From Acidobacteriota bacterium (GTDB lineage Bacteria; Acidobacteriota; Polarisedimenticolia; Gp22-AA2): a stretch of DNA of 64,000 nt. The stretch is from contig JANNTZ010000191.1 of the NCBI GenBank assembly GCA_031394595.1, positions 72-64,071 on the forward strand, in the 5' to 3' direction. A program made the position numbers and the translations under genes. The stretch's first letter is position 1. Each line of letters begins with the position of its first letter. Positions 2,482 through 27,024 of the stretch are shown here, piece by piece. The notes beneath the pieces are model-generated. The model was not told where the DNA came from and ran no database searches. It saw only the letters and a list, made by a program, of their open reading frames with translations.

Positions 2482-2510
2482 CGAATCCTCCATGCCGCCC
2501 TGTCCGTAGA

Positions 2511-12452: not shown

Positions 12453-13496
12453 TCATAACGACATGTCGATGCGTTTCAGGAACGCCGCTAGGCCGATCGA
12501 TCCGGCGACGATGCCGGCCAGGATCGCCGCCGCGCCCCGGGTGCCCGACATCATCATGGCGATCGCCAGGAGCCCCAGCAGCAGCGTCGCGCCCCAGGAC
12601 GCCAGGACCGTCTGCCGCGTGGTCAGTCGCCATTTCCGGACCCGCAGCGCGACGTGGTCGGGGCTGCCGAGCATCACCGGCAGCCCGCGCCGGTGGCGGA
12701 TGTACATGACGAACAGCATGTCGAAGACCGGCACCCCGAGGATCACCACCGGCGCCACCGAGGCGACCAGGTTCTCCCGGGTGTAGGAGTTGTTCATCCC
12801 GAGCGCCCCGAGCATCAACCCGATGAACATGCTGCCGGTGTCGCCCATGTAGATCCGGGCCGGCTGGACGTTGAAGCGCAGGAACCCGACCAGCGATCCG
12901 CAAAGGGCGGCAAGCACCAGCGCGTGGGTTTCGCGGCCGTTCATGACCGCCACCACGAACAGCACCAGCGCGGCGCAGGCCGCCACTCCCGCCGCCAGCC
13001 CGTCCATGATGTCGATCAGGTTGAAGGCGTTGGTGATCGCCAGGAGCCACACGAACGACAGGACGATCGCCACCGGCTCGGGCAGGAAGGCCAGCTTGAT
13101 GTAGATGGAGGCGTTCATCAGGGTCAGGACCGCGATCACCTGGCCCGCCAGCTTGACGCCGGGCGCCAGGACACCGAAGTCGTCCACCAGACCGAGGATT
13201 ACGACGATGGCGCCGGCGAGCAGAAGACCGAGGATCTCGGTCGAGTCGAAGCGCAGCGTCGCGGTCAACGCGAGAAGGAACGACAGGTAGATGGCGATCC
13301 CGCCGAGATAGGGCACCGGCTCGGCCTGGGTCTTCAGGCGGCCGTCCGGATGGTCGACGATTCCGAAGCGGATCGCCGCGGCGCGCAGGATCGGCGTGGT
13401 GTACAGGGCGAGGACCAGCGCCACACCGAACGCCAGCAGACAGAGCAGCATCCGGGGCTGGAGAAACGCCGCCATCGACCAGGCGCCGGCCGTCAT
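12453..13496 (-). CDS. Polyprenyl-phosphate N-acetylhexosamine-1-phosphate transferase (WecA/WbpL/MraY family), initiating glycosyltransferase
   Basis: 10-11 TM helices and DDxxD-like VDDFGVL. NAFNLIDIMDGLAAG and YMGDTGSMFIG motifs. ATG 13496 overlaps the upstream stop as ATGA. The alternative frame 12436..13794 is rejected. Confidence 0.8.
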   Translation of the reverse strand: MTAGAWSMAAFLQPRMLLCLLAFGVALVLALYTTPILRAAAIRFGIVDHPDGRLKTQAEPVPYLGGIAIYLSFLLALTATLRFDSTEILGLLLAGAIVVILGLVDDFGVLAPGVKLAGQVIAVLTLMNASIYIKLAFLPEPVAIVLSFVWLLAITNAFNLIDIMDGLAAGVAACAALVLFVVAVMNGRETHALVLAALCGSLVGFLRFNVQPARIYMGDTGSMFIGLMLGALGMNNSYTRENLVASVAPVVILGVPVFDMLFVMYIRHRRGLPVMLGSPDHVALRVRKWRLTTRQTVLASWGATLLLGLLAIAMMMSGTRGAAAILAGIVAGSIGLAAFLKRIDMSL

Positions 13497-14746: not shown

Positions 14747-15948
14747 GCCCGCCCTCCGCCCATGCCGGCGGCGGCCTCGCCTGCCGCAAACCTCTCCGGC
14801 GCCGAACCTGTCTCTCCGAGCACCCGTCGATAAACCGCGTCCACCCGCGCCGCGCCGGCGGCAAGCGAGAAGTTTTCGACCACCGACCGCCGGGCGGCCG
14901 CGCCGAGTTGCGCCGCCAGACCGGGGGTGCCGATCAGCCGCTGCATGGCAGCCGCGAGCGCCACCGGGTCGGCGGGTGGAACGATCAGCCCGGTGGCGCC
15001 GTCGGTGACCACGTCCTCGACCCCCACGGCCCGGGCCGCGACCACCGGGATCGACATCGCCATCGCCTCCAGCAGGGCCTGCGGCAGTCCTTCCCAGAGC
15101 GACGGGAGAACGAACAGATCGAGGGACGCGAGGATCGCGGGGACATCGCGGCGGTGGCCGAGGAAGATCACCCGCCCGTCGATCCCGGCCCGCCGCGCTT
15201 CATCCTCGAGGCGCGCGCGCTCCGGACCCTCGCCGGCAATCACCAGGAGGGCGCCGGGATGATCGACGAGCAGCCTCCCGAAGGCGCGCAGGAGATGCAC
15301 TTGCCCTTTCTGCGGCGCCAGGCGCCCGACTGTACCGATCACCGGCGCCTGTCCGTCCGCACCGATCGCGGCCCGCGCCTCGGCGCGGCCCGGGGCCCGA
15401 CCCCCGATGTCGGGGTCGACGCCGTTGCCGACGACCACCATGCGGCGCCGCGGCAGGTGCTCGACGTTCTCCAGGAACCGGGCGAGTCCCTCCGACACCA
15501 CGATGGTCGCGTCGGCTGCCTCGTAGGCCAGCCTTTCGAGGACCAGGAAGGGATAGCGCTTCCAGGTCCGCTGCTGCCGGAAGTCGTCGGCGTTCTGCTT
15601 GGTGGTCACGACCGCCCGCGCCCCTCCCAGCCGCGCCGCACAGGTCCCGTAGTAGTCGGCGAGGTCCATCTGCGTGTGCACCAGATCGATTCGGTCCCGG
15701 CGCACCAGCCGCACCAGGCGCCAGAGCGCCGCGGGGTCGACGGTCCCGCGCGTCCCGATCGCGACCACCGGGAAGCCGGCTGCCTCGAATTCCGGCGCCA
15801 GGACCGGCTCGCCCCTCAGGCAGGCGACGCGCAGGTCGTAGCGCCGCGGATCAAGATGCTGCAGGAGTCGCAGCAGCGCCATCTCCGTGCCACCCGGGAG
15901 CAGGGTCGCAATCACGTGCAGGACACGCACCCGGTCCGGAACGTTCAT
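14743..15948 (-). CDS. Glycosyltransferase family 4
   Basis: SLWEGLPQALLEAMAMSIPVVAARAVGVEDVV. N-terminal VLHVIATLLPGGTE. Confidence 0.8.
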   Translation of the reverse strand: MNVPDRVRVLHVIATLLPGGTEMALLRLLQHLDPRRYDLRVACLRGEPVLAPEFEAAGFPVVAIGTRGTVDPAALWRLVRLVRRDRIDLVHTQMDLADYYGTCAARLGGARAVVTTKQNADDFRQQRTWKRYPFLVLERLAYEAADATIVVSEGLARFLENVEHLPRRRMVVVGNGVDPDIGGRAPGRAEARAAIGADGQAPVIGTVGRLAPQKGQVHLLRAFGRLLVDHPGALLVIAGEGPERARLEDEARRAGIDGRVIFLGHRRDVPAILASLDLFVLPSLWEGLPQALLEAMAMSIPVVAARAVGVEDVVTDGATGLIVPPADPVALAAAMQRLIGTPGLAAQLGAAARRSVVENFSLAAGAARVDAVYRRVLGETGSAPERFAAGEAAAGMGGGRA

Positions 15949-17186
15949 CGACCGGCCCTCGCCTGCAGGGCCACGCCGCCGGGTTCCGGCGCCACCGCGC
16001 GATCCTTCTCCCCGGAGTCGATTCGCGGAAACGTCAGCCCGAGATCGCCGATCGCCCGTCGCACCTGGGCGAACCGATCGTCCCAGGTGTTTCGTCGCGC
16101 GTACTCCTGTCGCCGCGCCCGATTTTCAGGAGCCTCCAGCCGGCTGGCCTCCAGGGCGTCGGCGAACTCCGCCGGCGTACCCGCAGACCGGATCGGAGCC
16201 CGCATCGCGAGGGTTTCCTGGAGCGGCGCCGACACCACCGGGATCCCGGCGGCGCAGTATTCGTAGACCTTGATCGGGTGGATGGCATGCGTCATCGGTC
16301 CGGGGGCGAACGGCATGATCCCGGCGTCGGCATGGGCGGTGTAAGCGGGCAGATCGTCGTACCGCCGTGGCCCCAGCAGGCCGACGTTCGGCAGCGGGGC
16401 CAGGGCGCGGAGATCGGTCCGCACCGGCCCGATCAGGACGAACGACCAGCGCGGCAGCCGCCGCGCCACGGCCGCGATCAAGGCGGCATCGAACCACCAG
16501 TCGAGGCTGCCGATGTAAAGCGCCCGCGGCCGCGGCCAGCGGGCCAGATCGGCCGGCTCCGGCCGACCGCCCTGGAGGAACGGTTCCGGATCGCAGCCGT
16601 TCGGCACGTGCAGGACCCGGGTCGCCCCCAGGGCTCGGGCCCGCTCCGCGAGCGCGCCGGCGGTGACGATCACCAGGTCGGCGCGGCGGCAGGTCTCCGC
16701 CTCGATCGCCGCGAACTTCGAAGGCGTGTCGGGAAAGGACGCGGTATCGTCGCTCATCCGGTAGACGGCGGCACGGCGCGGCAGGTCGTCCATCAATCCC
16801 AGGAGCGGCGCCCCCGGCGACATCCAGAGCAGGTCGAGGTCTGCGAACCCGGCACGCGCCAGCACCCGCGTCAATCGTGGGGTCGTGGCGCGCAGCGTGC
16901 GGCGCTGCACCCACGGCCGGTCCAGGAGCGGATAGGGCCGGTGCGGCAGCCAGGTCATCGGAGCGTAGGCGAACTGACTCGCGCCCTCGCGCCATTCCCC
17001 GCCGCGCCGCCACAGCCGGAGACGGGCATCGGTCTCCGCGTTGCGCCGCAGCAGATTGACCGGCGAGAGCGGTCCGGCGCACCACGCCACGCGGGCCCCG
17101 TGGCGCAGGAAGCGCGCCGCGAAATGATGACCGCCGACCCGGATCGGGCCCCCGGGGGCGAAATGTTCCCACATCAGGATATTCAC
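15945..17186 (-). CDS. Glycosyltransferase (GT1/GT4-like, retaining GT-B)
   Basis: IKVYEYCAAGIPVVSAPL E-x7-E-like motif. GTG 17186 overlaps the upstream stop as GTGA. An alternative ATG is at 17174. Confidence 0.6.
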   Translation of the reverse strand: MNILMWEHFAPGGPIRVGGHHFAARFLRHGARVAWCAGPLSPVNLLRRNAETDARLRLWRRGGEWREGASQFAYAPMTWLPHRPYPLLDRPWVQRRTLRATTPRLTRVLARAGFADLDLLWMSPGAPLLGLMDDLPRRAAVYRMSDDTASFPDTPSKFAAIEAETCRRADLVIVTAGALAERARALGATRVLHVPNGCDPEPFLQGGRPEPADLARWPRPRALYIGSLDWWFDAALIAAVARRLPRWSFVLIGPVRTDLRALAPLPNVGLLGPRRYDDLPAYTAHADAGIMPFAPGPMTHAIHPIKVYEYCAAGIPVVSAPLQETLAMRAPIRSAGTPAEFADALEASRLEAPENRARRQEYARRNTWDDRFAQVRRAIGDLGLTFPRIDSGEKDRAVAPEPGGVALQARAGR

Positions 17187-19372
17187 CGCACTCCCCTCAC
17201 CGCCCGATCGAGGCGGAAGGTGACCCGCATCGCCGCCTCGATTTCCTCGAGGCCGATGAGGGGCGAAGACCCGCCGCGCAACGCCCGGGCCACCGCATCC
17301 CACTGGGCCGCGAACCCCTTGTCCTGGACCGGGAGTTCGATCGAACCGCCGGCGGCGCCGAACACCTCCAGGCACCGGAAATCGTCGATCACCAGCGCCC
17401 TCCCCCGGCGGAACAGCTCCAGACGTTCCTTCGGCAGGCCGCGGTCACCGAGCCCGGTGTAGACGAGGACGGCGCGCGAACCGGAGGCGAACCGGAAGGT
17501 CGCCGCGAACGAGTCGGACGCCACGACACCGACGCCATCGGTCGGCAGCGCCGCCGCTTCCACGCTCTCGACCGGCTCGCCCGCCAGGTGGATCAACAGA
17601 TCGACGAAGTGGCAGCACTCGCCGAGGACCCGGCCGCCGCCTTCCCGTGGATCCTGCAGCCAGTGGTCCGGTGGCAGCGGGCCGGCGTTGACCCGGTAGA
17701 CCGCCAGGAGCGGCCCTTCGACTCCGGCCAGGATCTCGCGGGCCCGCACCACCAGCGGGCTGTAGCGGCGGTTGAAGCCGACCGCGATCAGCCGGCGGGC
17801 CCGGCGGGCCTCGGAAAGCAGGGGCGAGATCTCCGTCTCCTCGAGGCAGAGCGGCTTTTCCACGAACACGTGGCGGCCGGCACGCAGGGCGGTGCGGGCC
17901 TGTTCGGCGTGCAGGTGATGGCGCGTGCCGATCAGCACCAGCGGCGCCTCGGTGCCGGCGATCAGGTCCGCCAGGCCGGCCGCGGCGCGCGGCACGCCGA
18001 AGGAGCGCGCGACTTCCCGGGCGTGGACCGGTGACGACGTCGCCACCGACTGAAGGCTGAACCCGGGCGCGCGGCGCAGGTGCGGCAGGTGGACGGCCCG
18101 CACGAACGCGCCGGCGCCGCAGACCGCGACCCCGATCGGGTCGCCCGCCGGGAGCGTGTCGTACCATCGAAGCCCGGCCTCGGATCCGCCCCGATCCGGC
18201 GCCCGGGTGAGGGAGGAAGGAACCGGGACGGGAGCACGGCCGGGATCCCCGGGGGCGTACCCGAGGACCACGCCGAGCGGTGGGTCACCCGCATCATTAT
18301 TAATGGCCTCGTAGGCCGAGGCGGCCTCCTCCAGGGGGAAGGTCCGGTCGATCAGGGGGCGCACCGCCACCCGCCCGGACCGCACCAGGTCGAGGAAAGC
18401 CGCCATGTTGCGGTTCTCGGTCCAGCGGACATAGGCGATCGGGTAGTCGATCCCCTTCTCCTCGTACTGCGGATCGTAACGACCCGGCCCGTACGAAGTG
18501 CTCATCCTGAGATCGAGCTCCTTCTCGTACATCAGGCCCCGATCCAGGTCCATGCCGACGACGCCGACCGCCACGACGATCCCTTTCTTGCGGCACAGAC
18601 GCATCGCCAGGTTGATCGCCTCGGACGAGGAGGTCGCGGCGCAAACCAGCACCGCGTCGGCGAGGACCCCGCCGGTGGCACGCCCGACTTCCTCGATCGG
18701 ATCGTGCGCTCCCAGCGACTGCGCCTCGATCCCGATGCCCCTCAACCGCGCGGCCCGCGCCGGTTCCAGGTCGTACCCCAGGACCCGCGCCCCTCCCGCC
18801 CTGAGGATCTGCGCCGTCAGGTTGCCGATCAGGCCCAGCCCGAGCACCACCGCGCACTCGCCGATCTGCAGGCCGGCGCGCCGCACACCATGCAGGGCGA
18901 TGGCGCCGAGGGTGGCGAACGCCGCCTCGTCCAACGGCAGACCGGCCGGGACCGGCACCACCAAGTTGCGCGGCACGGCGATCCACTCGGCGTGCGAGGC
19001 ATACCCGACACCGGCACAGGCGACCGACGTCCCCGGGGCCAGATCGAGGACCCCCTGCCCCGCCGCCTCCACGCGGCCCGACGCGGCGTAACCGGGGAAG
19101 GCCTCGGGGACGGCGGCGGCATGCTGACGGACCTTTTCGATCAGCGCGCCCGGACCTTCCGAGCGCAGGATTTCGAAGGCGCGCTGCAACCGCGACGGAT
19201 CGGCGGCGGATTGCAGCAGCCCGGGCCGTTCGCCGGCGCGCAGCACCGCCCGCTCCGTGCCGGCGCTCAGCACCGAACACGAGACGCGCACCAGCACCCG
19301 GCCCGGTCCGGCCTCGGGAACCGGGACTTCGACCAGGAGCGCCTTCCCGTCCTTCAGGGCCACCTGTCTCAT
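17183..19372 (-). CDS. Bi-domain oxidoreductase: N-terminal MDR zinc-type alcohol dehydrogenase fused to C-terminal Gfo/Idh/MocA NAD(P)-dependent oxidoreductase
   Basis: N-terminal half shows the GroES-like plus Rossmann MDR pattern (GLGLIGNLTAQIL). C-terminal half has the Gfo/Idh/MocA N-terminal motif (AVCGAGAFVRAVHLPHL). ATG 19372 verified. Confidence 0.7.
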   Translation of the reverse strand: MRQVALKDGKALLVEVPVPEAGPGRVLVRVSCSVLSAGTERAVLRAGERPGLLQSAADPSRLQRAFEILRSEGPGALIEKVRQHAAAVPEAFPGYAASGRVEAAGQGVLDLAPGTSVACAGVGYASHAEWIAVPRNLVVPVPAGLPLDEAAFATLGAIALHGVRRAGLQIGECAVVLGLGLIGNLTAQILRAGGARVLGYDLEPARAARLRGIGIEAQSLGAHDPIEEVGRATGGVLADAVLVCAATSSSEAINLAMRLCRKKGIVVAVGVVGMDLDRGLMYEKELDLRMSTSYGPGRYDPQYEEKGIDYPIAYVRWTENRNMAAFLDLVRSGRVAVRPLIDRTFPLEEAASAYEAINNDAGDPPLGVVLGYAPGDPGRAPVPVPSSLTRAPDRGGSEAGLRWYDTLPAGDPIGVAVCGAGAFVRAVHLPHLRRAPGFSLQSVATSSPVHAREVARSFGVPRAAAGLADLIAGTEAPLVLIGTRHHLHAEQARTALRAGRHVFVEKPLCLEETEISPLLSEARRARRLIAVGFNRRYSPLVVRAREILAGVEGPLLAVYRVNAGPLPPDHWLQDPREGGGRVLGECCHFVDLLIHLAGEPVESVEAAALPTDGVGVVASDSFAATFRFASGSRAVLVYTGLGDRGLPKERLELFRRGRALVIDDFRCLEVFGAAGGSIELPVQDKGFAAQWDAVARALRGGSSPLIGLEEIEAAMRVTFRLDRAVRGVR

Positions 19373-19376
19373 CGAC

Positions 19377-21434
19377 TCACCCGACGGCCTCCGGCGGCGC
19401 CGCCCCGACACCGACGTCCACCGCGAAACGGAACAGCGTCGGCAGCCGGCCGGACCAGTCGCAGCGCAGGGTGAGCGCCGGTTCCAGCCGGCCATACCCG
19501 GCGGAATAGAGATCCTGCTCGCGCAGCATCAGGGCGCCGTCCGGGCCCGCCAGCCGGCGGATCGCGAAGCGGACCTTCCCGGCGCGGCACAGGGCCGTGA
19601 GGCCGTCCTCCGTCAGGAACGCCTCGGCGCGCGGCGCCAGGTGGAAGAAAATCTCGATCCGGTGCTCACCCCGCCCGTCGAAGAGATCCTCGATCACGAA
19701 CCGGCGGGTGCGCTTGTTCAGGAGCACGATGCGGCGGTGGGTCACCGGATCCGCCAGGCGTCGATAGCCGTGGTGCTCGGCTTCCACCAGATCGAACCCG
19801 GCCCGGGAGACAAAACGGCGCACCACCGGGGCCTCGGTCCCCGGCAGGGCGAACGGCCAGTCGGGCAGGGGGTTGATCTCCTGCCCGTCGACCCGCGCCG
19901 TGCTGTGGGCGGCGGTCGAACGGAACCGCTGTCGCAGCGCCAGGTCGCGGGTGTAGATTCCGGTCCCGGGATCCACCACCAGGTCCTGTCCCTCCGCCTG
20001 GATCTCGAGGCCGAGGGTGTCGTTGTGGCCGTGGGCCCCCTGGCCCCGGAGCCCGGTCGTCCCGGCGTCGAGGAGTGCGTAGAGATCGTCATGGCGGAGG
20101 ACGGCGACCCCGGCCTCCGGGAACAGCCGCCCCGTCACCACGATCCGCCGGGGCGTCCCCTCGGCGCGCAGGCGCTCCGCGAGTTTCGGGCCGAAGAACC
20201 ACCAGGCCTCCTCCCAGCGCGGCCCCGCCAGCCGGAACAGCGCCGGGTCGTCGAAGGCGCAGCCGGCGACCGCCAGCAGATGTCGGTGGTCACGGCGATC
20301 GGCGTCGTAGTCGCCGAGGATCTGCAGACGACCGTCGTCGTTGTCGCCGATCTGGGGCGCCAGGCCGTCCGGCTTGGTGTAGTGGGCCACGTAATCGATC
20401 ATTCCCCGCACCCGCGCCCGCAGTTCCGGCAGACGGTACCCCGACCTCTCGATCAGGAGCAGCGCGGTCAGCGCCATCTCGGTCATCAGGCGGTGGTAGG
20501 AGGTCGAGGCTTCGTAGTCGGCTCCGTCGGCGTGCGTCTGCGCCGCGTTTTCGCGGACGATCTCGGCGATCGCCGTCCCCTTCCACGCATCGGCCTCAGG
20601 AGCGCCGCGGAACAGCACGCCCAGGAACAGCAGCCCCAGCAGGTCGGCGAAGTAGTGGTTGCTGTTGGCATCGCCCGCGCGCTCCAGGTTGGCGGCGATG
20701 AAACGGCCGTGGGCGAAGAGCGCCCGCAGCAGCAGCGAGGCGAAGGGTCGATCCGCCAGCACCTCGGCGCGGAAGAAGGCCCAGCCCCAGGTCCAGTTGA
20801 CGGCGCGGATGGCGACATCCATGGTGCAGACCCAGTTGATCCCGAATCCCGGGCGGTTCGTCTCGATCCAGTCGGTCACCTGGGCGCGGAACTCCTCGTA
20901 ACAGCGCCGATCGCCGGTGATCCAGAAGGCCTGGCCGAGCACCGGCAGGTGCTGGAAGCGCGACAGCTCCCAGGGGACCTTCACGTCCGCCCCCTGCCCG
21001 TAGCCCCGTTCGATCTGCGACCGCAGATCGAGGTAATGCGCCCGGCGGTCCCAGGTCCTTCCCGACACGAAGTCGGCGTGCCACGGCAGGCGGGGCCCGA
21101 GTTCGCAGGGACCCGAACCGAGGAACTCGACGCGATGGGCGCGCACCTGCTCGGCCCGATCCAGGATGCGGGCGCGGCGATCCGGGTGACGGGCAAAAAA
21201 CTCCGCCGTCGCGGTTCGCGACAGGTCGGTGACGAACAGACGCGCGTCGTCCGACAACGCCGCCAGCGCCTCGTCCAGGGTGCCGTAGCGGCCACCCAGG
21301 TCGCGGAGCAGGCCGTGCTCGGAGGGGAGCGCCAGCCGGGTCCGATCCTGTATCCTGCGGACGGCGCGCCCGAAGCGGGTCTTCAGCCCGCGCGCCGCCG
21401 CGATCGGGTCCCGGAGAACCGCGCTCAGTTCCAT
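19377..21434 (-). CDS. Heparinase II/III-like protein (alginate-lyase-like alpha/alpha toroid plus beta-sandwich)
   Basis: 685 aa with the W/H/Y-rich pattern typical of the family (INWVCTMDVAIRAVNW, NHYFADL). Commonly paired with Gfo/Idh/MocA enzymes in surface-glycan loci. Confidence 0.65.
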   Translation of the reverse strand: MELSAVLRDPIAAARGLKTRFGRAVRRIQDRTRLALPSEHGLLRDLGGRYGTLDEALAALSDDARLFVTDLSRTATAEFFARHPDRRARILDRAEQVRAHRVEFLGSGPCELGPRLPWHADFVSGRTWDRRAHYLDLRSQIERGYGQGADVKVPWELSRFQHLPVLGQAFWITGDRRCYEEFRAQVTDWIETNRPGFGINWVCTMDVAIRAVNWTWGWAFFRAEVLADRPFASLLLRALFAHGRFIAANLERAGDANSNHYFADLLGLLFLGVLFRGAPEADAWKGTAIAEIVRENAAQTHADGADYEASTSYHRLMTEMALTALLLIERSGYRLPELRARVRGMIDYVAHYTKPDGLAPQIGDNDDGRLQILGDYDADRRDHRHLLAVAGCAFDDPALFRLAGPRWEEAWWFFGPKLAERLRAEGTPRRIVVTGRLFPEAGVAVLRHDDLYALLDAGTTGLRGQGAHGHNDTLGLEIQAEGQDLVVDPGTGIYTRDLALRQRFRSTAAHSTARVDGQEINPLPDWPFALPGTEAPVVRRFVSRAGFDLVEAEHHGYRRLADPVTHRRIVLLNKRTRRFVIEDLFDGRGEHRIEIFFHLAPRAEAFLTEDGLTALCRAGKVRFAIRRLAGPDGALMLREQDLYSAGYGRLEPALTLRCDWSGRLPTLFRFAVDVGVGAAPPEAVG

Positions 21435-23044
21435 CGCACCAGCCCCCGATCCCGCAATTCCCCGATCAGCCGGATCACCTGCGCATCCCAGGTGTGCCGC
21501 TCGACGGCCCGGCGACGGGCCGCCTCGCCGAGGCGGTGACGCAGCGCCGGATCGTCGATCAGTCGCAGGATCCCGGCCGCCAGGGCAGCCTCGTCCCCCG
21601 GCGGCACGAGGATTGCCGTTCGATCATCCTCCAGGACCTCGCCGATCTGTTCCAGCCGGCTGGCCACGATACCGCGCCCCATCGCCATGTACTCGAACAG
21701 CTTGGTCGGCGATCCGAAGAACCGGCTGCCATCGGTGTTGGGAACGTGGGGCGAGGCCAGGATGTCCATCGCCGCGAGGTGGGCCGGACCGTCGGCCTGC
21801 GGCACCATGCCGGTGAACACGGCGCGCCCGCCGCACGGCGCCAGGATCGTCTCGCAGGCGGCCCGCTGCGGCCCATCCCCGACCAGCAGCGCGTGGGCCT
21901 CCGGCCGCGCCTCGAGGACACGCCGGAGGGCGCGGGCCAGGTTCGGCGCTCCGTGCCAGGCCCCGAAGGTGCCGATGAAACCGATCACCGTCCGCCCTTC
22001 CAGGCGGTGCCGGCGACGCACGACCCGCGCGTCCAGGTCCGGGCGGTAGCGCGCCGCGTCGACACCATTCGGCAGGACGACGATCCGCTCGTCATCGACG
22101 CCGCGCGCCCGCAGGTCGTCGCGCAGCGGCTCCGAGACCGTGACGATCAAATCGGCGTGGCGCAGGTTGACCGCCTCGATCCCGGCAAACAGGCCCCGCC
22201 AGCGGAAGGGGTGGCCCCAGTGATCGGCGACCCAGACCTCCGAACCGTTGTACTCCAGGACGAACGGCACTCCCAGCCGTCGCGACAGCATGACGCCGGC
22301 ATGGTTGCCGGTGTCGAATCGCTGGTAGATCAGGTCGGCGGGACGATCGGCGAGAACCCGTCGCGCCGCCCGCTCGAAGCGGAAGGAGTGCGCGAAGTAC
22401 GGGACTTCCAGGGCCACGTTGTACAGGCGCTTCGGCGGCACCAGGAATAGCGGGTGACGGCGGGTATCGATGAGCCCCGGGGCCACCGTGGCCAGGAAGA
22501 ACAGGTCGGCGCCGGCGGCCGCGAAGCCGCCCGCCACGCCGGCGGTGTGGGCGACCGATCCTCCGGCCTGGACACCGCTCCACAGGTCGGTGCGCAAATA
22601 GGCAACCCGCCGACCGGCGGCGGGGCGGGGGATCCGGCGGGCGGCCCGCCGGAGCCAGGCGACGCGCTGCGCGGTGCGGGCCAGCGCCCCGCCACAGGCC
22701 AACAGTCCGATCCCCCAGGCCGGCAGATCGCGCAGCAGAAAGTGCGGCAGCGACAGGACCTGCCGCCGCCCGTGCAAGTCGAGGAGCAGGCGCCGCGGCG
22801 CCAGCGGCAGGGCGCCCAGCGCCTGCAGCCGGTACAGTTTCGGGTGGACGTCCAGGTCGTCGCTCAGCAGCACCAGTTCGTCGGCGCCCAGGGCCCGCAG
22901 CCACGCCGGGACGCGCCACAGCGGCACCCGATCGAGATCGGCCCGCCGCAGCAACCGCAGTCCGCGATCCGGGAGAAGTTCCGCGAGCAACCCGTCGGCG
23001 CGGCCCAGATCGCGCGCCAGCATCAGCACCGCGGCGTTCGTCAC
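21425..23044 (-). CDS. Glycosyltransferase family 4 with ~150-aa N-terminal extension
   Basis: C-terminal KLFEYMAMGRGIVAS...PPGD motif. GTG 23044 overlaps the upstream stop as GTGA. The N-terminal 189 aa of the ORF track are rejected. Confidence 0.6.
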   Translation of the reverse strand: MTNAAVLMLARDLGRADGLLAELLPDRGLRLLRRADLDRVPLWRVPAWLRALGADELVLLSDDLDVHPKLYRLQALGALPLAPRRLLLDLHGRRQVLSLPHFLLRDLPAWGIGLLACGGALARTAQRVAWLRRAARRIPRPAAGRRVAYLRTDLWSGVQAGGSVAHTAGVAGGFAAAGADLFFLATVAPGLIDTRRHPLFLVPPKRLYNVALEVPYFAHSFRFERAARRVLADRPADLIYQRFDTGNHAGVMLSRRLGVPFVLEYNGSEVWVADHWGHPFRWRGLFAGIEAVNLRHADLIVTVSEPLRDDLRARGVDDERIVVLPNGVDAARYRPDLDARVVRRRHRLEGRTVIGFIGTFGAWHGAPNLARALRRVLEARPEAHALLVGDGPQRAACETILAPCGGRAVFTGMVPQADGPAHLAAMDILASPHVPNTDGSRFFGSPTKLFEYMAMGRGIVASRLEQIGEVLEDDRTAILVPPGDEAALAAGILRLIDDPALRHRLGEAARRRAVERHTWDAQVIRLIGELRDRGLVRWN

Positions 23045-23799
23045 CGCCCCTCCTTGCGCGCCACGCACCCGATCCGCTCCCCGAGGTAAACCAGGGGGAA
23101 GAGCAGGTCCTTGCAGACGCGCGGGATCCAGGACGGCATCACCAGCAGACCATGGTACTCGGAGGAGAACCGGAGGATCTTCAGGCCGCACGCCTCCAGG
23201 TCGCGGCGCAGCTCGCGCGGGCTGTAGAGGTAGGCGTAGCCGTACCCTGGCTGGGTTTTCAGGTTGCGCGCGTGTGCGAAGCGGAAGGTGCTGTAGCGGT
23301 TCGGGACCGTGATCACCACGTGCCCCCCCGGCTTGACGGCCCGGGTCATCTCCCGCATCGCGGTGCGGCGCGCCTCCTGGCCGGGGATGTGCTCGAGGGC
23401 CGAGAACGACACCGCCAGATCGAAGGTCCCGTCGGCGAACGACAGACGGGTGGCATCCTCGACCCGGAAATCGAGACGCGCCCGCAGCGCCGGTGGCAGC
23501 TCGAGGTCCGCGAGACGCGAGGCCATGGCGATGGCGTCCGGGTTGACGTCGACGGCGGTCCAGCGGCCGACACGGTGCGCGAAGTGCATCTCGTCGATCG
23601 GCTCGAAGCACCCGACGTTCAGGATGCTCCGCCCGTCGAGTGGCACGTCCTCCATCAGGTCCCAGTCGACCAGCGCCTTGGTCGCGACGTAGGTCGGGTT
23701 GTCGCGCTGCCCGCGCGCCAGCACCTGCGCCGCCAGCGCGCTGTAGGCCTCGCGGACGTCGCGCGCCGCGGCGGCGGTGTCACGGGCCTCCCAGCTCAT
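23041..23799 (-). CDS. Class I SAM-dependent methyltransferase
   Basis: Motif I ILNVGCFEP and an FDLAVSFSALEHIP region. ATG 23799 overlaps the wzx stop as ATGA. Confidence 0.75.
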   Translation of the reverse strand: MSWEARDTAAAARDVREAYSALAAQVLARGQRDNPTYVATKALVDWDLMEDVPLDGRSILNVGCFEPIDEMHFAHRVGRWTAVDVNPDAIAMASRLADLELPPALRARLDFRVEDATRLSFADGTFDLAVSFSALEHIPGQEARRTAMREMTRAVKPGGHVVITVPNRYSTFRFAHARNLKTQPGYGYAYLYSPRELRRDLEACGLKILRFSSEYHGLLVMPSWIPRVCKDLLFPLVYLGERIGCVARKEGR

Positions 23800-25073
23800 G
23801 GGCGGATCTCCAGGAGGGCCGCCACTTCGCCGGCCACCGGCACCAGCGCCTGGCGCAACGGCAGGCCACCGCGGCGCAGGAACGAGGCCATGGTCAGGGC
23901 GAGCATGAAGAGGGCGGAGGCCGAGGCGGCGAGGGCGGCGCCCGTCAGTCCAAGACCGGGGAGGAGCCATGCGTTCAGGGCCAGGTTGACCGCCAGCGCC
24001 CCGAGCGGCGCGCCGATGACGATCGACGGCAGACCATCCCCGGCGAAATGATTCATCAGGATGCCGCTCAACCCCGTCGCCCAGACCCCCGGCAGGAGCC
24101 ACAGGAACGGGGCGACCGCGCCGGCGAACTCCGGCCCGTACAGAATGTGCATGGCCGGCGCGGCGACCGCGGCAGCCGCCCCGCAGAGGATCGTCATCAC
24201 CAGGACGGCAAGCCGGCTGACGCGGGCGGTGATCGCGGCCCGATCGCCCTGCGATGCCGCCGCGATCCGCGGCATGAGGATCATCCCGATGGTGCCGGGC
24301 ACCAGCAGCATGGTGTCGGCGATCTGCAGGGCGATCGAGTAGACGCCGGTGGCGGCGACCCAGTCGTGGGCATTGATCAGGAACACCTGGACCCGGGCGA
24401 TCAGGAATGTCAGCAGGCAGGCGACCCAGGCCCGCCCTCCGTAACCGAGCATCGATCCCAATAGGGCCCGGTCGGGGCGTCCGATCCCGACGAGCCGCGC
24501 GGTGTAGGCGACCGACGCCAGACCGAATACCGCCGCACCGACGGCGAACAGCACGACGGCGCCCGCGGCCCCCCCGGAAGCCCCGATCAGGTAGACCGCC
24601 AGGAACACGAAGACCCCGCCCCGGTGGACGAGTTCGAAGACATTGAAGGCCCGCACCCGCCCCAGACCGAGCAGGGCATTCTGAAAGAACAGGATCAGGA
24701 ACTGGAATGGCAACGCGACACAGGTGACCAGGAGGAGGGCCAGGGGGACGGCGCCAAGGATCTCCGGCCAACCGTGGAACACCCCCAGGCAGACGACCGC
24801 CCCTGCGATCCCCATCGCCACGCTGGTCCACAGGGCGTTCGCCAGGATGACGCGGGCCCGGCCGGGTTCGCGCGCCATGAAATAGACATTGCTGCTGTGC
24901 AGCCCGAGATTGCCGATCTGGAGGACCAGGCCGGTCAGGGCGGCGAGCGTGGCGAGGATCCCCCGGCCCTCGGCGCCGAGCCAGCGGGCGGTGACGATGC
25001 TGCTGGTCACACCCACCGCCAGCCCCAGACCGCGGGCCACCAGGGTCCCACCCACGCGAGTCGCGAAGCCCAT
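23796..25073 (-). CDS. wzx: Polysaccharide biosynthesis protein / O-unit flippase (Wzx, MOP superfamily)
   Basis: 425 aa, ~12 predicted TM helices, no soluble domains. Confidence 0.7.
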   Translation of the reverse strand: MGFATRVGGTLVARGLGLAVGVTSSIVTARWLGAEGRGILATLAALTGLVLQIGNLGLHSSNVYFMAREPGRARVILANALWTSVAMGIAGAVVCLGVFHGWPEILGAVPLALLLVTCVALPFQFLILFFQNALLGLGRVRAFNVFELVHRGGVFVFLAVYLIGASGGAAGAVVLFAVGAAVFGLASVAYTARLVGIGRPDRALLGSMLGYGGRAWVACLLTFLIARVQVFLINAHDWVAATGVYSIALQIADTMLLVPGTIGMILMPRIAAASQGDRAAITARVSRLAVLVMTILCGAAAAVAAPAMHILYGPEFAGAVAPFLWLLPGVWATGLSGILMNHFAGDGLPSIVIGAPLGALAVNLALNAWLLPGLGLTGAALAASASALFMLALTMASFLRRGGLPLRQALVPVAGEVAALLEIRP

Positions 25074-25080
25074 CCCGACC

Positions 25081-27024
25081 TCAGGCCGCCTGGCCGTCGA
25101 TCCAGTAGTCGTACCACCGACTCAGGTTATAAAGGGTCCACAAGTGCCAGGAGTGATCACGCCGCCCGTCACGGTGCGTTTCGAACATCCTGCCGATCAG
25201 GTCGTAATCGAACAGCGATTCGTCCCGCAGACGCGACTGCAGCACGCCATCGCGGGCCGGCCCGTACAGCTCCCCCATCAGCCACTCGCGCACCGGCGCT
25301 CCGAACCCCTGCTTGGGCCGGTCGATGATGGAGTCGGGGAGGATCCCGCGCATGGCGAGACGCAGCAGGTACTTCCCCCGGCCGTCCTGGATCTTGAGGG
25401 GCGTCGGGATCCGCATGGAGAACTCGACCAGTTTGTGATCGAGGAACGGGACCCGGGCCTCGATGGAGGAGGCCATGGTGATCTTGTCGACCCGCATCAG
25501 GAGCAGCTCGGCGAGGCGGTTCTTCAGTTCGAGGTAGATCATCCGCTGCCCGTAGTCGGCGCCGTTGCGCAGCGCCTGCGCCCGCTTGTCGATCTCGACG
25601 ATCGCGTCGTGCGATGACAGCCCGCCGATCGGCACCAGCGCCTCCGGCAGCAGGAGGCGGCGCTTTTCCTGCTCGCTCCAGGCGATGATCCCGCCCCAGA
25701 AGAACAGCTCGTCGCGCGCCGCCCGGCGCAGCATCTCGAGGCGATCGCCGCCGCGGCCCAGCAGACCGGCCAGCCCCAGGGCGGTGCGATACGCCGCCAC
25801 GCGGATCGGCCGCGGCAGGCGGCGGATGCGCTCGAAGGCCGCGCCGTGCTGGCGGAAGGCGCGCAGGTAATGCTCGTAGCCGAAGAACTGCTCGTCGCTC
25901 CCTTCCCCGACCTGGATGACCGTCGTCCCGGAATCGCGCGCCAGTTTGGAAACGAAGTGCAGCGGCACACAGACCCAGTCGGCGATCGGCTCGTCCTGGT
26001 GGAAGATGAGCCGCGGCATGAAATCGAGGAGGTCCTTCGAGTCGATGACGACTTCGTGGTGGTCGGTACGGAAGCGCCGCGCCACCTCGCGGGCCCAGCC
26101 GAATTCGTTGTAGGACGCCTGGTCCTTGAAACCGACCGAGAACGTGCGGACCGGGCGGTCCATGAGACGCGCCATCAGGGCGACGTTGGCCGACGAGTCG
26201 AGGCCACCCGAGAGGAACACCCCGACCGGGACGTCCGACATCATCCGCTTCGCCACCGCCTCCTCGAGGAGCGTGCGGATGCGGGTGGCGCAGAACCCGG
26301 CGTCGTCGTATCGCGCCTCCGGTTCGGGCGGGACCTCGAACGGGTCCCAGTAGGTCTCGCTGCGCATGTTGCCGTGACGATCCACGATCACCCGGGTGGC
26401 CGGTGGCAGCTTGTGAATCCCCTGGAACAGCGTGCGCGGCGCCGGCGAGGCGACGAAGCTCAGGTAGTGATAGAGGGCCGCCCGATCGATCCCCCGCGTC
26501 ATCCGCGGGTGCTCGAGGATCGCCTTGATCTCGGACCCGAACAGGAGGGTCCCGGGCAGAACGGCGTAATACAGCGGTTTGACCCCGATCCGGTCGCGTG
26601 CCAGGATCAACTCCCGGCGGCGGGAGTCCCAGATCGCGAGGGCGAACATCCCCTCGAGGCGGTTCAGGAAGTCCGGGCCCTCCTCTTCGTAGAGATACAG
26701 CAGGGTCTCGGTGTCGGTGCGGGAGCGGTAGACATGCCCCTTCGCCTCGAGCTCCTTCCGTAGACGCGCATGGTTGTAGACCTCGCCGTTGTAGGTGATC
26801 CAGATCGATCCGTCCTTGTTGCACATCGGCTGGTGGCCGGCGGGCGACAGATCGATGATCGACAGACGGCGGTGGCCAAAGCCGACGCGGCGGTCCTCCG
26901 AAATCCAGAGCCCGCCATCGTCGGGACCGCGGTGGACGAGCGTGTCCCGCATCCGTTCCAGGACTTTCTCGTCCACCGGGCGGTTGGAACCCTCGAATTC
27001 AACCACACCGGTGATGCCGCACAC
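25081..27024 (-). CDS. asnB: Asparagine synthetase (glutamine-hydrolysing) family amidotransferase, second copy
   Basis: GTG start followed by Cys2 (MCGITGVV). RGPDDGG, YNGEVYNH and SGGLDSS motifs. 647 aa. Confidence 0.85.
   Translation of the reverse strand: MCGITGVVEFEGSNRPVDEKVLERMRDTLVHRGPDDGGLWISEDRRVGFGHRRLSIIDLSPAGHQPMCNKDGSIWITYNGEVYNHARLRKELEAKGHVYRSRTDTETLLYLYEEEGPDFLNRLEGMFALAIWDSRRRELILARDRIGVKPLYYAVLPGTLLFGSEIKAILEHPRMTRGIDRAALYHYLSFVASPAPRTLFQGIHKLPPATRVIVDRHGNMRSETYWDPFEVPPEPEARYDDAGFCATRIRTLLEEAVAKRMMSDVPVGVFLSGGLDSSANVALMARLMDRPVRTFSVGFKDQASYNEFGWAREVARRFRTDHHEVVIDSKDLLDFMPRLIFHQDEPIADWVCVPLHFVSKLARDSGTTVIQVGEGSDEQFFGYEHYLRAFRQHGAAFERIRRLPRPIRVAAYRTALGLAGLLGRGGDRLEMLRRAARDELFFWGGIIAWSEQEKRRLLLPEALVPIGGLSSHDAIVEIDKRAQALRNGADYGQRMIYLELKNRLAELLLMRVDKITMASSIEARVPFLDHKLVEFSMRIPTPLKIQDGRGKYLLRLAMRGILPDSIIDRPKQGFGAPVREWLMGELYGPARDGVLQSRLRDESLFDYDLIGRMFETHRDGRRDHSWHLWTLYNLSRWYDYWIDGQAA

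Follow-up and report, generated by a model that had tools for sequence, protein, structure and literature searches.

A type IV pilus-linked operon in an Acidobacteriota bacterium encodes a recurrent enzyme cassette that most likely modifies uronic acid sugars

The TIGR03108 family of amidotransferases includes WbpS, WbqG, and PGN_1234, and genetic evidence indicates that uronamide formation requires WbqG and PGN_1234 (PMC7468200, PMC3684757). The heparinase-type fold can serve either a lyase or an epimerase (PMC8006597). In the locus described here, homologs of both groups are encoded together with a bi-domain oxidoreductase. A literature search found no publication on this cassette or on the oxidoreductase-heparinase pair, in agreement with an earlier sequence-only reading that had called the pair functionally uncharacterized, and we found no characterized member of the bi-domain oxidoreductase family or of this heparinase-like subfamily.

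We analyzed a 64-kb stretch of DNA (here, the window), in which all of the genes considered below lie on the minus strand. A 15-gene operon (positions 7994 to 30851, minus strand; ~23 kb) is embedded in a type IV pilus cluster of this uncultured bacterium, flanked by pilA on one side and by a pilH/I-like ABC transporter and a prepilin peptidase on the other; its genes have high GC3, and their ends overlap or almost touch. The entire island is syntenic between pilA and pilH/I/D-like genes in two relatives (loci L082 and L085), whose oxidoreductases are 64% and 47% identical to that of the window. Six closely spaced genes at 17183 to 27024 encode an AsnB-like protein, Wzx, a methyltransferase, a GT4 glycosyltransferase, a heparinase-like protein, and the bi-domain oxidoreductase. 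The sequence-only reading had assigned two AsnB-like proteins and an FAD oxidoreductase to this interval; one AsnB gene lies within it, while the other (9172 to 11082) and that of the FAD protein (11093 to 12439) lie 5 to 8 kb outside. The claimed genes are nevertheless present as glycan-tailoring enzymes of one operon. Overall, that reading was partly confirmed in its observation and partly supported in its interpretation.

The initiating enzyme is a polyprenyl-phosphate HexNAc-1-phosphate transferase of the WecA/WbpL/MraY family (12453 to 13496; PF00953, 3.7e-31); its start was refined to the ATG at 13496, with the sequence GGAGGGGAG upstream, and its N-terminal region resembles by eye that of the 337-aa L082 ortholog. 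Two of the glycosyltransferases are GT4 enzymes encoded side by side (13493 to 14746, Glyco_trans_1_4, 4.4e-41; 14743 to 15948, Glycos_transf_1, 2.5e-41). A further GT4 enzyme with an N-terminal extension of ~160 aa (21425 to 23047; Glyco_trans_1_4, 4e-24; Glyco_transf_4, 2.6e-17) is TIGR04063-like (7.7e-40) and has 546- to 589-aa orthologs in L082, L084, L088, and L048. The GT-B enzyme at 15945 to 17186 (Glyco_trans_1_4, 6e-10), also called as a gene in L001, shows weak GumK_N/TuaH similarity, of the glucuronosyltransferase type, under the cutoff for GumK_N (2.2e-5) and far below it for TuaH (4e-20), and had no sequence relative in the PDB. The last gene of the island (7994 to 9166; translation MDRTVRVCHVITRLELGGAQ...) was judged GT4-like by eye, and a GT4 gene occupies its position in L082 and L085.

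The Wzx-like flippase (23796 to 25073) matched PF13440 and NF041503 weakly, and its orthologs in L085 and L088 carry PF01943/PF13440. Two membrane proteins have Wzy_C domains: one with a C-terminal TPR region (27136 to 29097; PF04932, 8.4e-17; L082 ortholog, 46 to 49% identical), which is a candidate polymerase, ligase, or O-oligosaccharyltransferase, and one whose gene adjoins pilA (29094 to 30851; PF04932, 3.2e-17; L082 ortholog, 48% identical). The type IV pilin PilA (30949 to 31440; N_methyl, 9.6e-10; T2SSG), the C terminus of which (...QWPQGTQT) is identical in L082, is a candidate acceptor of the glycan. The protein encoded at 11093 to 12439 (PF01593/PF13450), previously read as an FAD oxidoreductase, turned out to be a UDP-galactopyranose mutase (UGM)-like flavoenzyme, i.e., a pyranose-furanose mutase rather than a redox enzyme. 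It is a full-length homolog of eukaryote-type UGM (phmmer; Aspergillus fumigatus, 3e-45; Trypanosoma cruzi, 1e-41) and keeps the motifs YPFQxN, FYR, and GRFGSWxY; a neutral furanose is thus a probable further constituent of the glycan. Pfam matches verified the predicted methyltransferase (23041 to 23799; class I SAM, ~252 aa; Methyltransf_11, 4.7e-16) and heparinase II/III-like protein. Given that L087 and L089 each have the gene of a ~250-aa methyltransferase adjoining that of the heparinase-like protein, and L088 has it one gene off, we regard the methyltransferase as a member of the conserved cassette.

The two AsnB paralogs (paralog 1, 25081 to 27024, with GATase_6/7 matches [GATase_7, 3e-47] and Asn_synthase [5.5e-102]; paralog 2, 9172 to 11082, identified by Pfam) are 37% identical to each other and share an SGGLDS PP-loop. 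Their Cys2 nucleophiles, reported earlier as intact, could be read directly from the start codons (GTG-TGC, M-CGITG; ATG-TGC, MCGLAG). For both proteins the best full-length match was TIGR03108 (WbpS/WbqG type; 524 and 474 bits, both below the cutoff of 817). The housekeeping AsnB model NF006949 (cutoff, 499) was failed at 325 and 227 bits, and the generic asparagine synthase model TIGR01536 (cutoff, 267) was exceeded at 514 and 405 bits. The nearest solved structure was TsnB9 (7YLZ; 1e-76), a non-asparagine amidotransferase, which is closer to the paralogs than Escherichia coli AsnB (6e-51). Neither paralog matched the N-acetyl-sugar amidotransferase family of WbuX (TIGR03573), and no HisH/HisF-type partner was seen among the scanned window open reading frames (ORFs). 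Of the proposed WbpS/WbuX-type identity, the WbpS/WbqG-like half is therefore supported and the WbuX-like half is not, although sequence alone does not fix a substrate. Paralog 2, present in L082, is missing from the otherwise syntenic L085, so that two amidations would not be a fixed feature of such loci.

The heparinase II/III-fold (PL12-like) protein (19377 to 21434; 685 aa; PF16889, 2.7e-21; PF07940, 1.4e-38) aligned with 4MMH/4MMI such that N240, Y294, and H424 of HepIII correspond to N259, Y313, and H468, which are kept in 25 to 26 of 28 family members. H470, D488, and H510 vary little or not at all (25 to 28 of 28 members across the catalytic and putative metal sites). By residue numbering, their spacing appears similar to that of the metal-binding residues in heparinase II, Alg17c, and DS-epi1. 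No N-terminal hydrophobic signal or signal peptide was detected, and the protein is most likely cytoplasmic with the PL12 Asn/Tyr/His triad and the putative metal site retained. The 45 best Foldseek matches of its predicted structure (pLDDT, 88.5) in the PDB (E values, 9e-26 to 5e-6) were all uronate lyases or dermatan-sulfate epimerase 1, comprising PL12, PL17, PL15, PL33, PL35, PL39, PL40, PL21, PL8, and the human epimerase. Every significant fold neighbor acts at C5 of a uronic acid. The triad and these neighbors lend independent support to a uronic acid substrate, as the sequence-only reading had proposed. They do not separate an epimerase from a lyase; C5 epimerization appears most likely.

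The oxidoreductase (17183 to 19372; 729 aa) joins an MDR half (residues 1 to 372; ADH_zinc_N, 3.7e-11) to a Gfo/Idh/MocA half (residues 410 to 729; GFO_IDH_MocA, 4.9e-20). Translation probably begins with MRQVAL at 19372 rather than at the ATG at 19495, and a protein of identical sequence and length (729 aa) is called in public data. There were 7,442 homologs at E values of ≤1e-10, named "bi-domain-containing oxidoreductase" at NCBI. The MDR fold agrees with the earlier "zinc-ADH-like" label, but this half is no zinc enzyme, since each of the three catalytic ligands of the metal is lost (GHE is G-Y95-A, CGTD is S-A-G-T-E at the Cys position, and LTCSG is ATL-G). Weak matches of this half included PIG3/quinone oxidoreductase (1.5e-7), acryloyl-CoA reductase (1.9e-6), and the FAS ER domain (1.3e-7), and its Cys119 is invariant in the family. 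The Gfo half keeps Lys506 of the EKP motif and His588, from which we infer an active site like that of dehydrogenases acting on secondary alcohols of sugars; its nearest relative was KanD2 (29% identity). The Asp after β2 of KanD2 is Thr here, with no acidic residue following β2, and the MDR half has an NAD-type Asp201; the halves thus seem to differ in cofactor preference, an argument resting on single residues. In the model (pLDDT, 84.5; pTM, 0.51, leaving the interdomain geometry uncertain), Foldseek neighbors were KanD2/GenD2, scyllo-inositol dehydrogenase, AFR, GnnA, TADH, and SDH.

The genomic context was sampled from the 80 best-scoring stretches out of at least 598 that matched, so that the frequencies may differ from those of the family as a whole; neighbors were counted in 48 loci whose flanks extend 5 kb or more to either side of the oxidoreductase gene. 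Within 5 kb, a heparinase-like gene was located in 21 of the 48 loci (12 at 300 bp or less), confirming the predicted recurrence of the pair, and an AsnB-like gene in 23 (14 at 300 bp or less). In about 83% (40/48), a gene of the heparinase-like, AsnB-like, or PF06662 (glucuronyl-C5-epimerase-like) type lay no more than 6 kb away. PF06662 was found in 7 of 27 loci lacking a heparinase-like gene versus 1 of 21 with one (p = 0.064). Conversely, all three distant heparinase-like homologs checked (35 to 40% identity) had the oxidoreductase in the same locus. The oxidoreductase recurs in many phyla, as does the cassette of heparinase-like protein, oxidoreductase, methyltransferase, and GT4 enzymes, often with AsnB.

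No UDP-sugar 6-dehydrogenase, 2-epimerase, C5-epim_C, or SDR epimerase was detected by tblastn in the 64-kb window, nor was a DegT aminotransferase or acetyltransferase seen among the scanned ORFs. WbpA/E/D/I-type partners were thus absent from the window (scanned ORFs; tblastn for dehydrogenase and epimerase), leaving a Wbp-like route unsupported, and the uronic acid must originate elsewhere or by an unknown route. The cultured carrier Pseudomonas sp. RIT-PI-S (L048) favors a uronic acid substrate: there, the cassette immediately follows genes for a UDP-GlcNAc 2-epimerase and a UDP-sugar 6-dehydrogenase. WecB and WecC form the route to UDP-ManNAcA, an amino-uronic acid, and by analogy the L048 pair would make this sugar.

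We consider it somewhat probable that the flagged genes form the tailoring core of a Wzx/Wzy-type glycan-assembly operon in the pilus cluster. Homology indicates that the PF00953 enzyme places HexNAc-1-phosphate on a lipid carrier as the starting unit, that five glycosyltransferases extend it, that the UGM-like mutase supplies a furanose, and that Wzx flips the unit for polymerization and/or transfer by the two Wzy_C proteins. The glycan would carry one or more hexuronic acids, perhaps including a HexNAcA (for example, ManNAcA) with precursor genes elsewhere in the genome. The AsnB paralogs may adenylate its C6 carboxylate and form a uronamide with ammonia from glutamine (WbpS/WbqG chemistry). 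On the cytoplasmic side, the heparinase-fold protein, presumably catalytically intact, would take the C5 proton of the uronic acid in a lipid-linked oligosaccharide or nucleotide sugar, most likely epimerizing it to the L configuration, as dermatan-sulfate epimerase does, or alternatively causing beta-elimination. A sugar hydroxyl of the uronic acid residue or the same glycan unit would undergo NAD(P)-dependent oxidation/reduction by the oxidoreductase, the zinc-less MDR half being the reductase-type partner of the Gfo half; inversion by oxidation and then reduction, or a keto intermediate, would be the most likely outcome. The methyltransferase would add a methyl group.

A true lyase that trims or degrades a uronic acid glycan (for quality control, to release chains, or to recycle them, as AlgL does with alginate), or that makes a 4,5-unsaturated uronate for reduction by an ene-reductase-like MDR half to a 4-deoxy uronic acid, is a doubtful reading. 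All characterized bacterial members of the fold are beta-eliminating lyases, the triad of the protein is that of a lyase, and MDRs without zinc usually reduce C=C bonds, in line with the weak matches above. However, lacking a signal peptide, the protein cannot reach an exported polymer, a lyase acting in the cytoplasm would break down the very product that its biosynthetic operon makes, and the heparinase-like gene tends to alternate with the bona fide epimerase family PF06662. To our knowledge, no natural glycan has a 4-deoxy-uronate formed by a lyase and MDR reduction. It is also unlikely that the oxidoreductase makes the carboxylate itself, by two-step C6 oxidation (alcohol to aldehyde to acid) of a transferred, lipid-linked hexose or HexNAc on which the AsnB, heparinase-like, or C5-epimerase-like enzyme then acts. 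Of 46 loci that span 20 kb or more, 39 have such neighbors, acting on or beside a carboxylate, against a UDPG_MGDP_dh gene in only 3 of the 46 and none in the window; 6 of 8 loci with a UDP-GlcNAc 2-epimerase lack the dehydrogenase, and in 14 of 48 the AsnB gene comes straight after that of the oxidoreductase, at 300 bp or less. The invariant Cys119 would also fit, as would kinship with the semialdehyde dehydrogenase PmdC (9AZO), PmdC-like enzymes acting on the hemiacetal form. Nevertheless, alcohol oxidation normally requires the zinc site that is missing from the MDR half, the differing cofactor preferences suit an oxidize/reduce couple better than two oxidations, the nearest characterized Gfo relatives oxidize secondary alcohols, and the loci of both cultured carriers (L043 and L048) do encode a UDP-sugar 6-dehydrogenase; housekeeping dehydrogenases encoded elsewhere would explain the absence of such a gene equally well.

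That the AsnB proteins do not act on sugars at all, but are asparagine synthetases or amidate another carboxylate (peptide, pilin, or lipid) beside a neutral glycan, seems quite unlikely. Their substrate ambiguity, their scores above the generic asparagine synthase cutoff, and the peptide and small-molecule amidotransferases in the family (lasso-peptide cyclase and TsnB9 matches) would allow it, but they fail the AsnB equivalog model, are translationally coupled inside glycan operons across phyla, often right after the oxidoreductase, and share the operon with a uronate-specific fold. Finally, in a specific form of the WbpB-like chemistry that the sequence-only reading had invoked, the Gfo domain would oxidize UDP-GlcNAc(A) at C3, leading to a Wbp-type 2,3-diamino uronic acid amidated or given an acetamidino group by AsnB/WbuX. 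The Gfo half does resemble the sugar 3-dehydrogenases KanD2/GenD2 of aminoglycoside amino-sugar biosynthesis and GnnA, and the AsnBs are WbpS-like. This model is very unlikely, and its WbpB-like chemistry was not upheld: the oxidoreductase scored 37 bits against the UDP-GlcNAc 3-dehydrogenase model (cutoff, 450), the window lacks a UDP-sugar 6-dehydrogenase, the scanned ORFs lack WbpE/DegT, the acetyltransferase WbpD, WbpA, and WbpI, no DegT family was present among the annotated recurrent neighbor clusters, and the AsnBs lack a WbuX-family match. We conclude that the heparinase-like enzyme, the oxidoreductase, and the AsnB-like amidotransferases represent a widespread, unstudied trio that most likely modifies uronic acid sugars.

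The window has a G+C content of approximately 70% and contains many spurious long open reading frames (ORFs), and real genes were therefore chosen on the basis of GC3 and Pfam matches. Three antisense ORFs on the plus strand (19257-21539, 27355-29241, and 14908-16266; 452 to 760 aa) were set aside as artefacts of the high G+C content; the GC3/frame filter excluded the first, and the GC3 signals of the other two are below those of their sense partners. All of the real genes in and around the interval flagged by the sequence-only reading (17183-27024) are on the minus strand. Because neighboring gene ends either overlap by 4 to 10 bp or are separated by gaps of 4 to 13 bp, these genes were considered to form one operon. 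The first in transcription order is pilA (30949-31440), followed by genes for a Wzy_C protein (29094-30851), a Wzy_C protein with TPR (27136-29097), AsnB paralogue 1 (25081-27024), Wzx (23796-25073), a methyltransferase (23041-23799), a GT4 protein with an N-terminal extension (21425-23047), a heparinase II/III-like protein (19377-21434), an MDR-Gfo/Idh/MocA fusion (17183-19372), a GT-B transferase with weak GumK_N/TuaH similarity (15945-17186), two GT4 proteins (14743-15948 and 13493-14746), a PF00953 initiating transferase (12453-13496), a FAD protein similar to UDP-galactopyranose mutase (UGM; 11093-12439), AsnB paralogue 2 (9172-11082), and a GT4-like protein assigned by eye (7994-9166). 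Six of these genes are inside the flagged interval, but the second AsnB paralogue and the FAD protein lie outside it.

Upstream of the operon are pilR, pilS, pilC, pilT, pilB, and pilM-Q, and downstream are genes for an ABC ATPase, an ABC-2 permease, and a prepilin peptidase. The order of the pil cluster is pilB-T-C-S-R ... pilA ... ABC ... pilD, with pilM-Q upstream, and in the region 7994-31440 the whole glycan operon is set between pilA and the genes for the pilH/I-like ABC transporter and the prepilin peptidase. Two relatives (L082 and L085) have the whole island in syntenic order, likewise bounded by pilA and pilH/I/D-like genes, and the pilin C terminus (...QWPQGTQT) is the same in the window and L082. 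These results suggest an island that serves pilin O-glycosylation specifically and includes two divergent Wzy_C proteins. Comparable systems are the pilA-tfpO/pilO island of Pseudomonas aeruginosa 1244 and other pilA-linked glycosylation genes. As in strain 1244, a gene for a membrane protein with a Wzy_C/O-antigen ligase domain is directly downstream of pilA, and the pilin ends with a hydroxy amino acid (here Thr, conserved in one relative). In contrast to strain 1244, the pil cluster here contains a whole glycan synthesis operon rather than the transferase alone, and there are two Wzy_C proteins. Glycosylation of the pilin here is a prediction.

Two further regions of the window may be related to pilin or surface structures. 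Between pilR and pilA (31589-35880, minus strand) are genes for a YfhO-like membrane protein (825 aa), in which PF09586 matches only the C-terminal ~60 residues, and a 605-aa protein for which Pfam gave no match. YfhO proteins glycosylate teichoic acids in Firmicutes, and by analogy these two proteins could represent a second pilin- or surface-glycosylation activity. At 3-2604 (minus strand), downstream of a PAS histidine kinase gene (2660-4915), genes encode two further proteins that carry prepilin N-methylation motifs, a long one (at least 498 aa) and a shorter one (~183 to 209 aa); these are probably minor or atypical pilins.

The two AsnB paralogues (~630 to 650 aa; 37% identity to each other) each consist of a Cys2 glutaminase domain and a PP-loop synthetase domain, and wzx adjoins in the glycan locus. 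The intact Cys2 nucleophiles that had been proposed were confirmed in both proteins (M-CGITG at 25081-27024 and MCGLAG at 9172-11082); in paralogue 1, the sole possible start codon immediately precedes the Cys codon. Both domains were detected (GATase_6/7, E values of 1e-38 to 3e-47; PF00733 [Asn_synthase], 5.5e-102 and 2.8e-89), with an SGGLDS PP-loop in both paralogues. The top NCBIfam match was TIGR03108 over the full length (524.5 and 474.5 bits), although the curated cutoff (816.9) was not reached. Both proteins failed the asparagine synthase B model NF006949 (324.7 and 226.6 bits; cutoff, 499) and passed the broad TIGR01536 (514 and 405 bits; cutoff, 267). The closest solved structure was the hydroxyamidotransferase TsnB9 (1e-76), with Escherichia coli AsnB behind (6e-51). 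WbpS and WbqG belong to TIGR03108; PGN_1234 makes a uronamide according to genetic evidence, and WbqG is reported to be required for the same conversion (PMC7468200). The window proteins resemble WbpS (P. aeruginosa O6), WbqG (E. coli O121), and PGN_1234 (Porphyromonas gingivalis) in length, Cys2 glutaminase, PP-loop, best full-length match to TIGR03108, and wzx neighbor, with the likeness to WbpS and WbqG being judged via the family model. They differ in scoring below the TIGR03108 cutoff, in being two paralogues, and in having no UDP-HexNAcA-forming genes nearby. We consider the AsnB paralogues WbpS-like on the basis of homology and context, with a putative substrate.

Two other readings of these enzymes were dropped. 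One, a WbuX-type function, had been offered alongside the WbpS type, but the WbuX/N-acetyl-sugar amidotransferase family was missing from the NCBIfam matches (E ≤ 1e-3); among the scanned ORFs of the window there were also no HisH/HisF-like partners (WbuY/WbuZ). The other was a reductive amination scheme in which the Gfo domain oxidizes the sugar, AsnB supplies ammonia, and the MDR domain reduces the imine; it was dropped because both AsnB paralogues keep the ATP-dependent, carboxylate-activating PP-loop synthetase domain.

A UDP-sugar 6-dehydrogenase (UDPG_MGDP_dh homologue), which would be the uronate source for the AsnB paralogues, is absent from the window. A tblastn search of the window with five queries from related loci (UDP-sugar 6-dehydrogenase, UDP-GlcNAc 2-epimerase, SDR epimerase, C5-epim_C protein, and carbamoyltransferase) returned only noise (E ≥ 0.24), and neither an aminotransferase nor an acetyltransferase was present among the ORFs of the Pfam scan, which covered the window apart from nine gaps of 0.5 to 1.8 kb. 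With its partner enzymes missing from the tblastn matches and from these scanned ORFs, a Wbp-type pathway leading to a 2,3-diamino uronic acid was rejected as unsupported. The annotated recurrent neighbor clusters of related loci likewise contained no DegT protein or acetyltransferase. Regarding the WbpB-like chemistry attributed to the fusion, the EKP Lys and the catalytic His are present, but the score for the UDP-GlcNAc 3-dehydrogenase model NF040723 was 37 bits (cutoff, 450), and no WbpE or WbpD partner is among the scanned ORFs.

The fusion (17183-19372, minus strand; 729 aa) has an identical counterpart and 7,442 homologues (E ≤ 1e-10) in public data; its nearest named relatives are from metagenome-assembled genomes of Acidobacteriota/"Ca. 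Polarisedimenticolia." The N-terminal half had been described as zinc-ADH-like. Its MDR Rossmann fold holds (ADH_zinc_N, 3.7e-11; GLGLIG at 178 to 183; invariant acidic residue D201 after β2), but alignments to SDH and Sulfolobus ADH revealed the loss of all three catalytic zinc ligands (GHE to G-Y95-A, CGTD to SAGTE, and LTCSG to ATL-G), which rules out a zinc-ADH. This half has invariant residues of its own (S36, T39, E40, Y95, C119, H127, and E129), and its nearest structures are TADH, SDH, and TDH. In the C-terminal Gfo half (PF01408, 4.9e-20), E505-K506-P507 and H588 are invariant. The nearest structures to this half are KanD2/GenD2, scyllo-inositol dehydrogenase, 1,5-anhydrofructose reductase, and GnnA. 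KanD2/GenD2 act in aminoglycoside biosynthesis, and WbpB/GnnA are UDP-GlcNAc(A) 3-dehydrogenases; with these enzymes the Gfo half (29% identity to KanD2) shares a Rossmann plus α/β C-terminal domain, the EKP Lys, and the catalytic His. The window protein differs from such sugar dehydrogenases in its fused MDR domain, the lack of an aminotransferase partner, and two substitutions: the usual Asp four positions before the His is Gly, followed by the invariant Glu585, and the NAD-binding Asp after β2 of KanD2 is replaced by Thr/Ser/Gly, with Thr in the window protein.

From these residues, we consider the fusion to combine a domain of the sugar secondary-alcohol dehydrogenase type with a predicted zinc-less, reductase-like MDR domain, the two halves possibly differing in cofactor preference. 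The predicted structure has a pLDDT of 84.5 and a pTM of 0.51, the latter indicating that the domain packing is uncertain. The architecture is compatible with either an oxidize-then-reduce inversion or a keto intermediate and establishes neither.

The heparinase-like protein (19377-21434, minus strand; 685 aa) matched both domains of its family above the cutoff (Hepar_II_III_N, 2.7e-21; Hepar_II_III_C, 1.4e-38). Residues N259, Y313, and H468 align with N240, Y294, and H424 of Pedobacter HepIII (4MMH/4MMI), in which N240 is the neutralizer and Y294/H424 are the base/acid pair (PMC12088678). Across 28 family members, N259 (25/28), Y313 (25/28), and H468 (26/28) are conserved, and H470, D488, and H510, which form an H-x-H...D...H pattern, are near-invariant or invariant. 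The spacing of this putative metal site resembles that of the metal-binding residues in heparinase II, Alg17c, and DS-epi1. The AlphaFold model was confident (pLDDT, 88.5; pTM, 0.90), and the best 45 PDB matches by Foldseek (E, 9e-26 to 5e-6) comprised only uronic-acid lyases and human dermatan-sulfate epimerase 1, in the order PL12 (9e-26), PL17, PL33, PL15, PL39, PL35, PL40, PL21, and PL8, with the human epimerase (6HZN) at 4e-14. The protein shares the two-domain fold of an (α/α)-toroid plus β-sandwich, the Asn/Tyr/His catalytic residues, and a heparinase II/Alg17c-like metal-site spacing with PL12 heparinase III (Pedobacter HepC 4MMH; Bacteroides BT4657 5JMD) and the PL15, PL17, PL21, and PL35 lyases. 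It is only 17 to 18% identical to PL12 HepIII, scored 46 bits with the HepC model (cutoff, 700), has no secretion signal, and is encoded in biosynthetic operons, its activity being predicted from sequence.

Whether this enzyme is an epimerase or a lyase is a question raised by the dual use of the fold: lyases have the same fold and active site as a biosynthetic C5-epimerase, human dermatan-sulfate epimerase 1, in which a His/Tyr active site of the lyase type, with its metal site, can catalyze C5 epimerization in biosynthesis (PMC8006597). On the side of a lyase are the PF07940 papers in the full-text literature that we searched, all of which concerned degradative lyases, and the fact that an epimerase role is known for the human enzyme, whereas bacterial members of the fold have been without evidence of one so far. 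On the side of an epimerase are the setting of the gene, inside biosynthetic operons and not degradative loci, and the fold shared with the human enzyme (12% identity). The latter acts on a polymer in the Golgi lumen, whereas the window protein has no N-terminal hydrophobic signal by inspection. On balance, we tentatively put an epimerase ahead, at somewhat above one chance in three, and regard a lyase as rather unlikely. The fold neighbors together with the lyase/C5-epimerase precedent are the strongest independent support for a uronic acid residue in the product.

The FAD protein (11093-12439, minus strand), previously read as an FAD oxidoreductase, proved to be a full-length homologue of eukaryote-type UGM (Aspergillus fumigatus, 3e-45; Trypanosoma cruzi, 1e-41, residues 5 to 429), with the motifs YPFQxN, FYR, and GRFGSWxY kept and a score of 22.1 bits for the bacterial Glf model TIGR00031 (cutoff, 303.75). 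A redox role was set aside in favor of a UGM-type mutase, assigned by homology; the protein thus predicts a furanose residue and not oxidation. The position of the UDP-binding Arg182 appears, counted by eye, not to be conserved in the alignment, and the sugar substrate may therefore differ.

To place the fusion and the heparinase-like gene in a wider context, relatives of the fusion were searched in one genome per species. At least 598 stretches with such relatives were found, and the best 80 loci were examined; these were from Acidobacteriota, Chloroflexota, Pseudomonadota, Bacteroidota, Bacillota (Paenibacillus), candidate-phyla-radiation bacteria, and one archaeon. Neighbors were detected by iterated HMM searches on ORFs, since tblastn at a 50% coverage threshold detected too few heparinase-like genes, and were counted at the 48 loci in which the sequence extended 5 kb or more to either side of the fusion. 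Of these loci, 21 had a heparinase-like gene no more than 5 kb away (12 of them at 300 bp or less), 23 had an AsnB-like gene at that distance (14 of them at 300 bp or less), and 38 had one or the other; with PF06662-like genes also counted and a limit of 6 kb, the total was 40. The fusion-heparinase pair, proposed as recurring but uncharacterized, is thus recurrent across many phyla. Conversely, the fusion was present in the loci of all three heparinase-like homologues looked up (35 to 40% identity), together with a ~250-aa methyltransferase and GT4 proteins. No paper on a biosynthetic role of either protein was found in the full-text literature searched, which misses most subscription journals, so within that literature the cassette (these genes, often with AsnB) is functionally uncharacterized.

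The annotated neighbor clusters of the best 80 loci were GT4 (31), carbamoyltransferase (11), GT2 (11), methyltransferase (10), UDP-GlcNAc 2-epimerase (10), PF06662 (9), SDR epimerase (9), and UDP-sugar 6-dehydrogenase (8); the last was present in only 3 of the 46 loci of at least 20 kb. The glucuronyl-C5-epimerase-like PF06662 gene occurred in 7 of the 27 loci without a heparinase-like gene versus 1 of the 21 with one (P = 0.064), which hints that the PF06662 and heparinase folds are functional alternatives. AsnB also tended to alternate with the heparinase-like gene (18/27 loci without versus 7/21 with; P = 0.04). A carbamoyltransferase was also encoded in five of the eight PF06662-containing loci.

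Two carriers are cultured, Paenibacillus dokdonensis YH-JAE5 (L043; NZ_STGQ01000001.1, 1127341-1149488) and Pseudomonas sp. RIT-PI-S (L048; NZ_JANZKJ010000001.1, 535464-557587). In the Pseudomonas locus (L048, 4433-20875), the gene order is UDP-GlcNAc 2-epimerase, UDP-sugar 6-dehydrogenase, heparinase-like protein 1 (556 aa), GT4, fusion, AsnB, heparinase-like protein 2 (702 aa), Wzx, and GT4 with an N-terminal extension. By analogy with WecB/WecC, the first two enzymes presumably lead to UDP-ManNAcA. This cultured Pseudomonas, which has two heparinase-like paralogues in the locus, is a tractable experimental system. In loci from other phyla (L084, L087, L088, and L089), the cassette occurs alongside DUF362 (Fe-S), CapK_C (adenylate-forming, CapK-like), and B12-binding radical-SAM enzymes, which points to further unusual tailoring steps.

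Taken as a whole, the operon most likely builds a unit of up to approximately six sugars that begins with a HexNAc. One or more uronic acids would be present in the unit, along with a furanose. The uronic acid would be amidated by one or both AsnB paralogues, processed at C5 by the lyase-fold enzyme, redox-tailored by the fusion, and methylated. A uronic acid is probably present in the glycan; amidation is slightly favored, and an amino-uronic acid (HexNAcA) is conceivable, with the odds leaning a little against it. The pilin may be the target of the glycan, given that its ...GTQT C terminus is conserved in a relative and that two Wzy_C proteins are encoded next to pilA. In a bolder scheme, which we judge improbable, the heparinase-fold protein and the fusion would constitute an unrecognized route that makes and remodels uronic acids after glycosyl transfer. 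The fusion would oxidize a hexose or HexNAc of the lipid-linked unit, at C6 or via a keto intermediate; the lyase-fold enzyme would be a biosynthetic C5-epimerase, the bacterial equivalent of the animal dermatan-sulfate epimerases and possibly their evolutionary source; and surface glycans in many phyla would gain L-configured uronic acids or uronamides without a dedicated nucleotide-sugar pathway.

The locus type, a Wzx/Wzy glycan operon with WbpS-like amidotransferases, is already known. The heparinase-like/fusion cassette is widespread (>7,400 fusion homologues) and annotated only in generic terms, its proteins being labeled "bi-domain-containing oxidoreductase" (the NCBI name) and "heparinase II/III family protein" or "alginate lyase family protein." The operon itself, in a phylum that has received little study, appears to be a complete island for glycan synthesis that specifically serves a type IV pilin. 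Once assigned, the chemistry of the cassette would improve the prediction of surface-glycan structures from genomes, may account for L-configured or amidated uronic acids in bacteria, and would test whether the polysaccharide-lyase fold is used for biosynthetic epimerization in bacteria, which would bear on the origin of the animal dermatan-sulfate epimerases.
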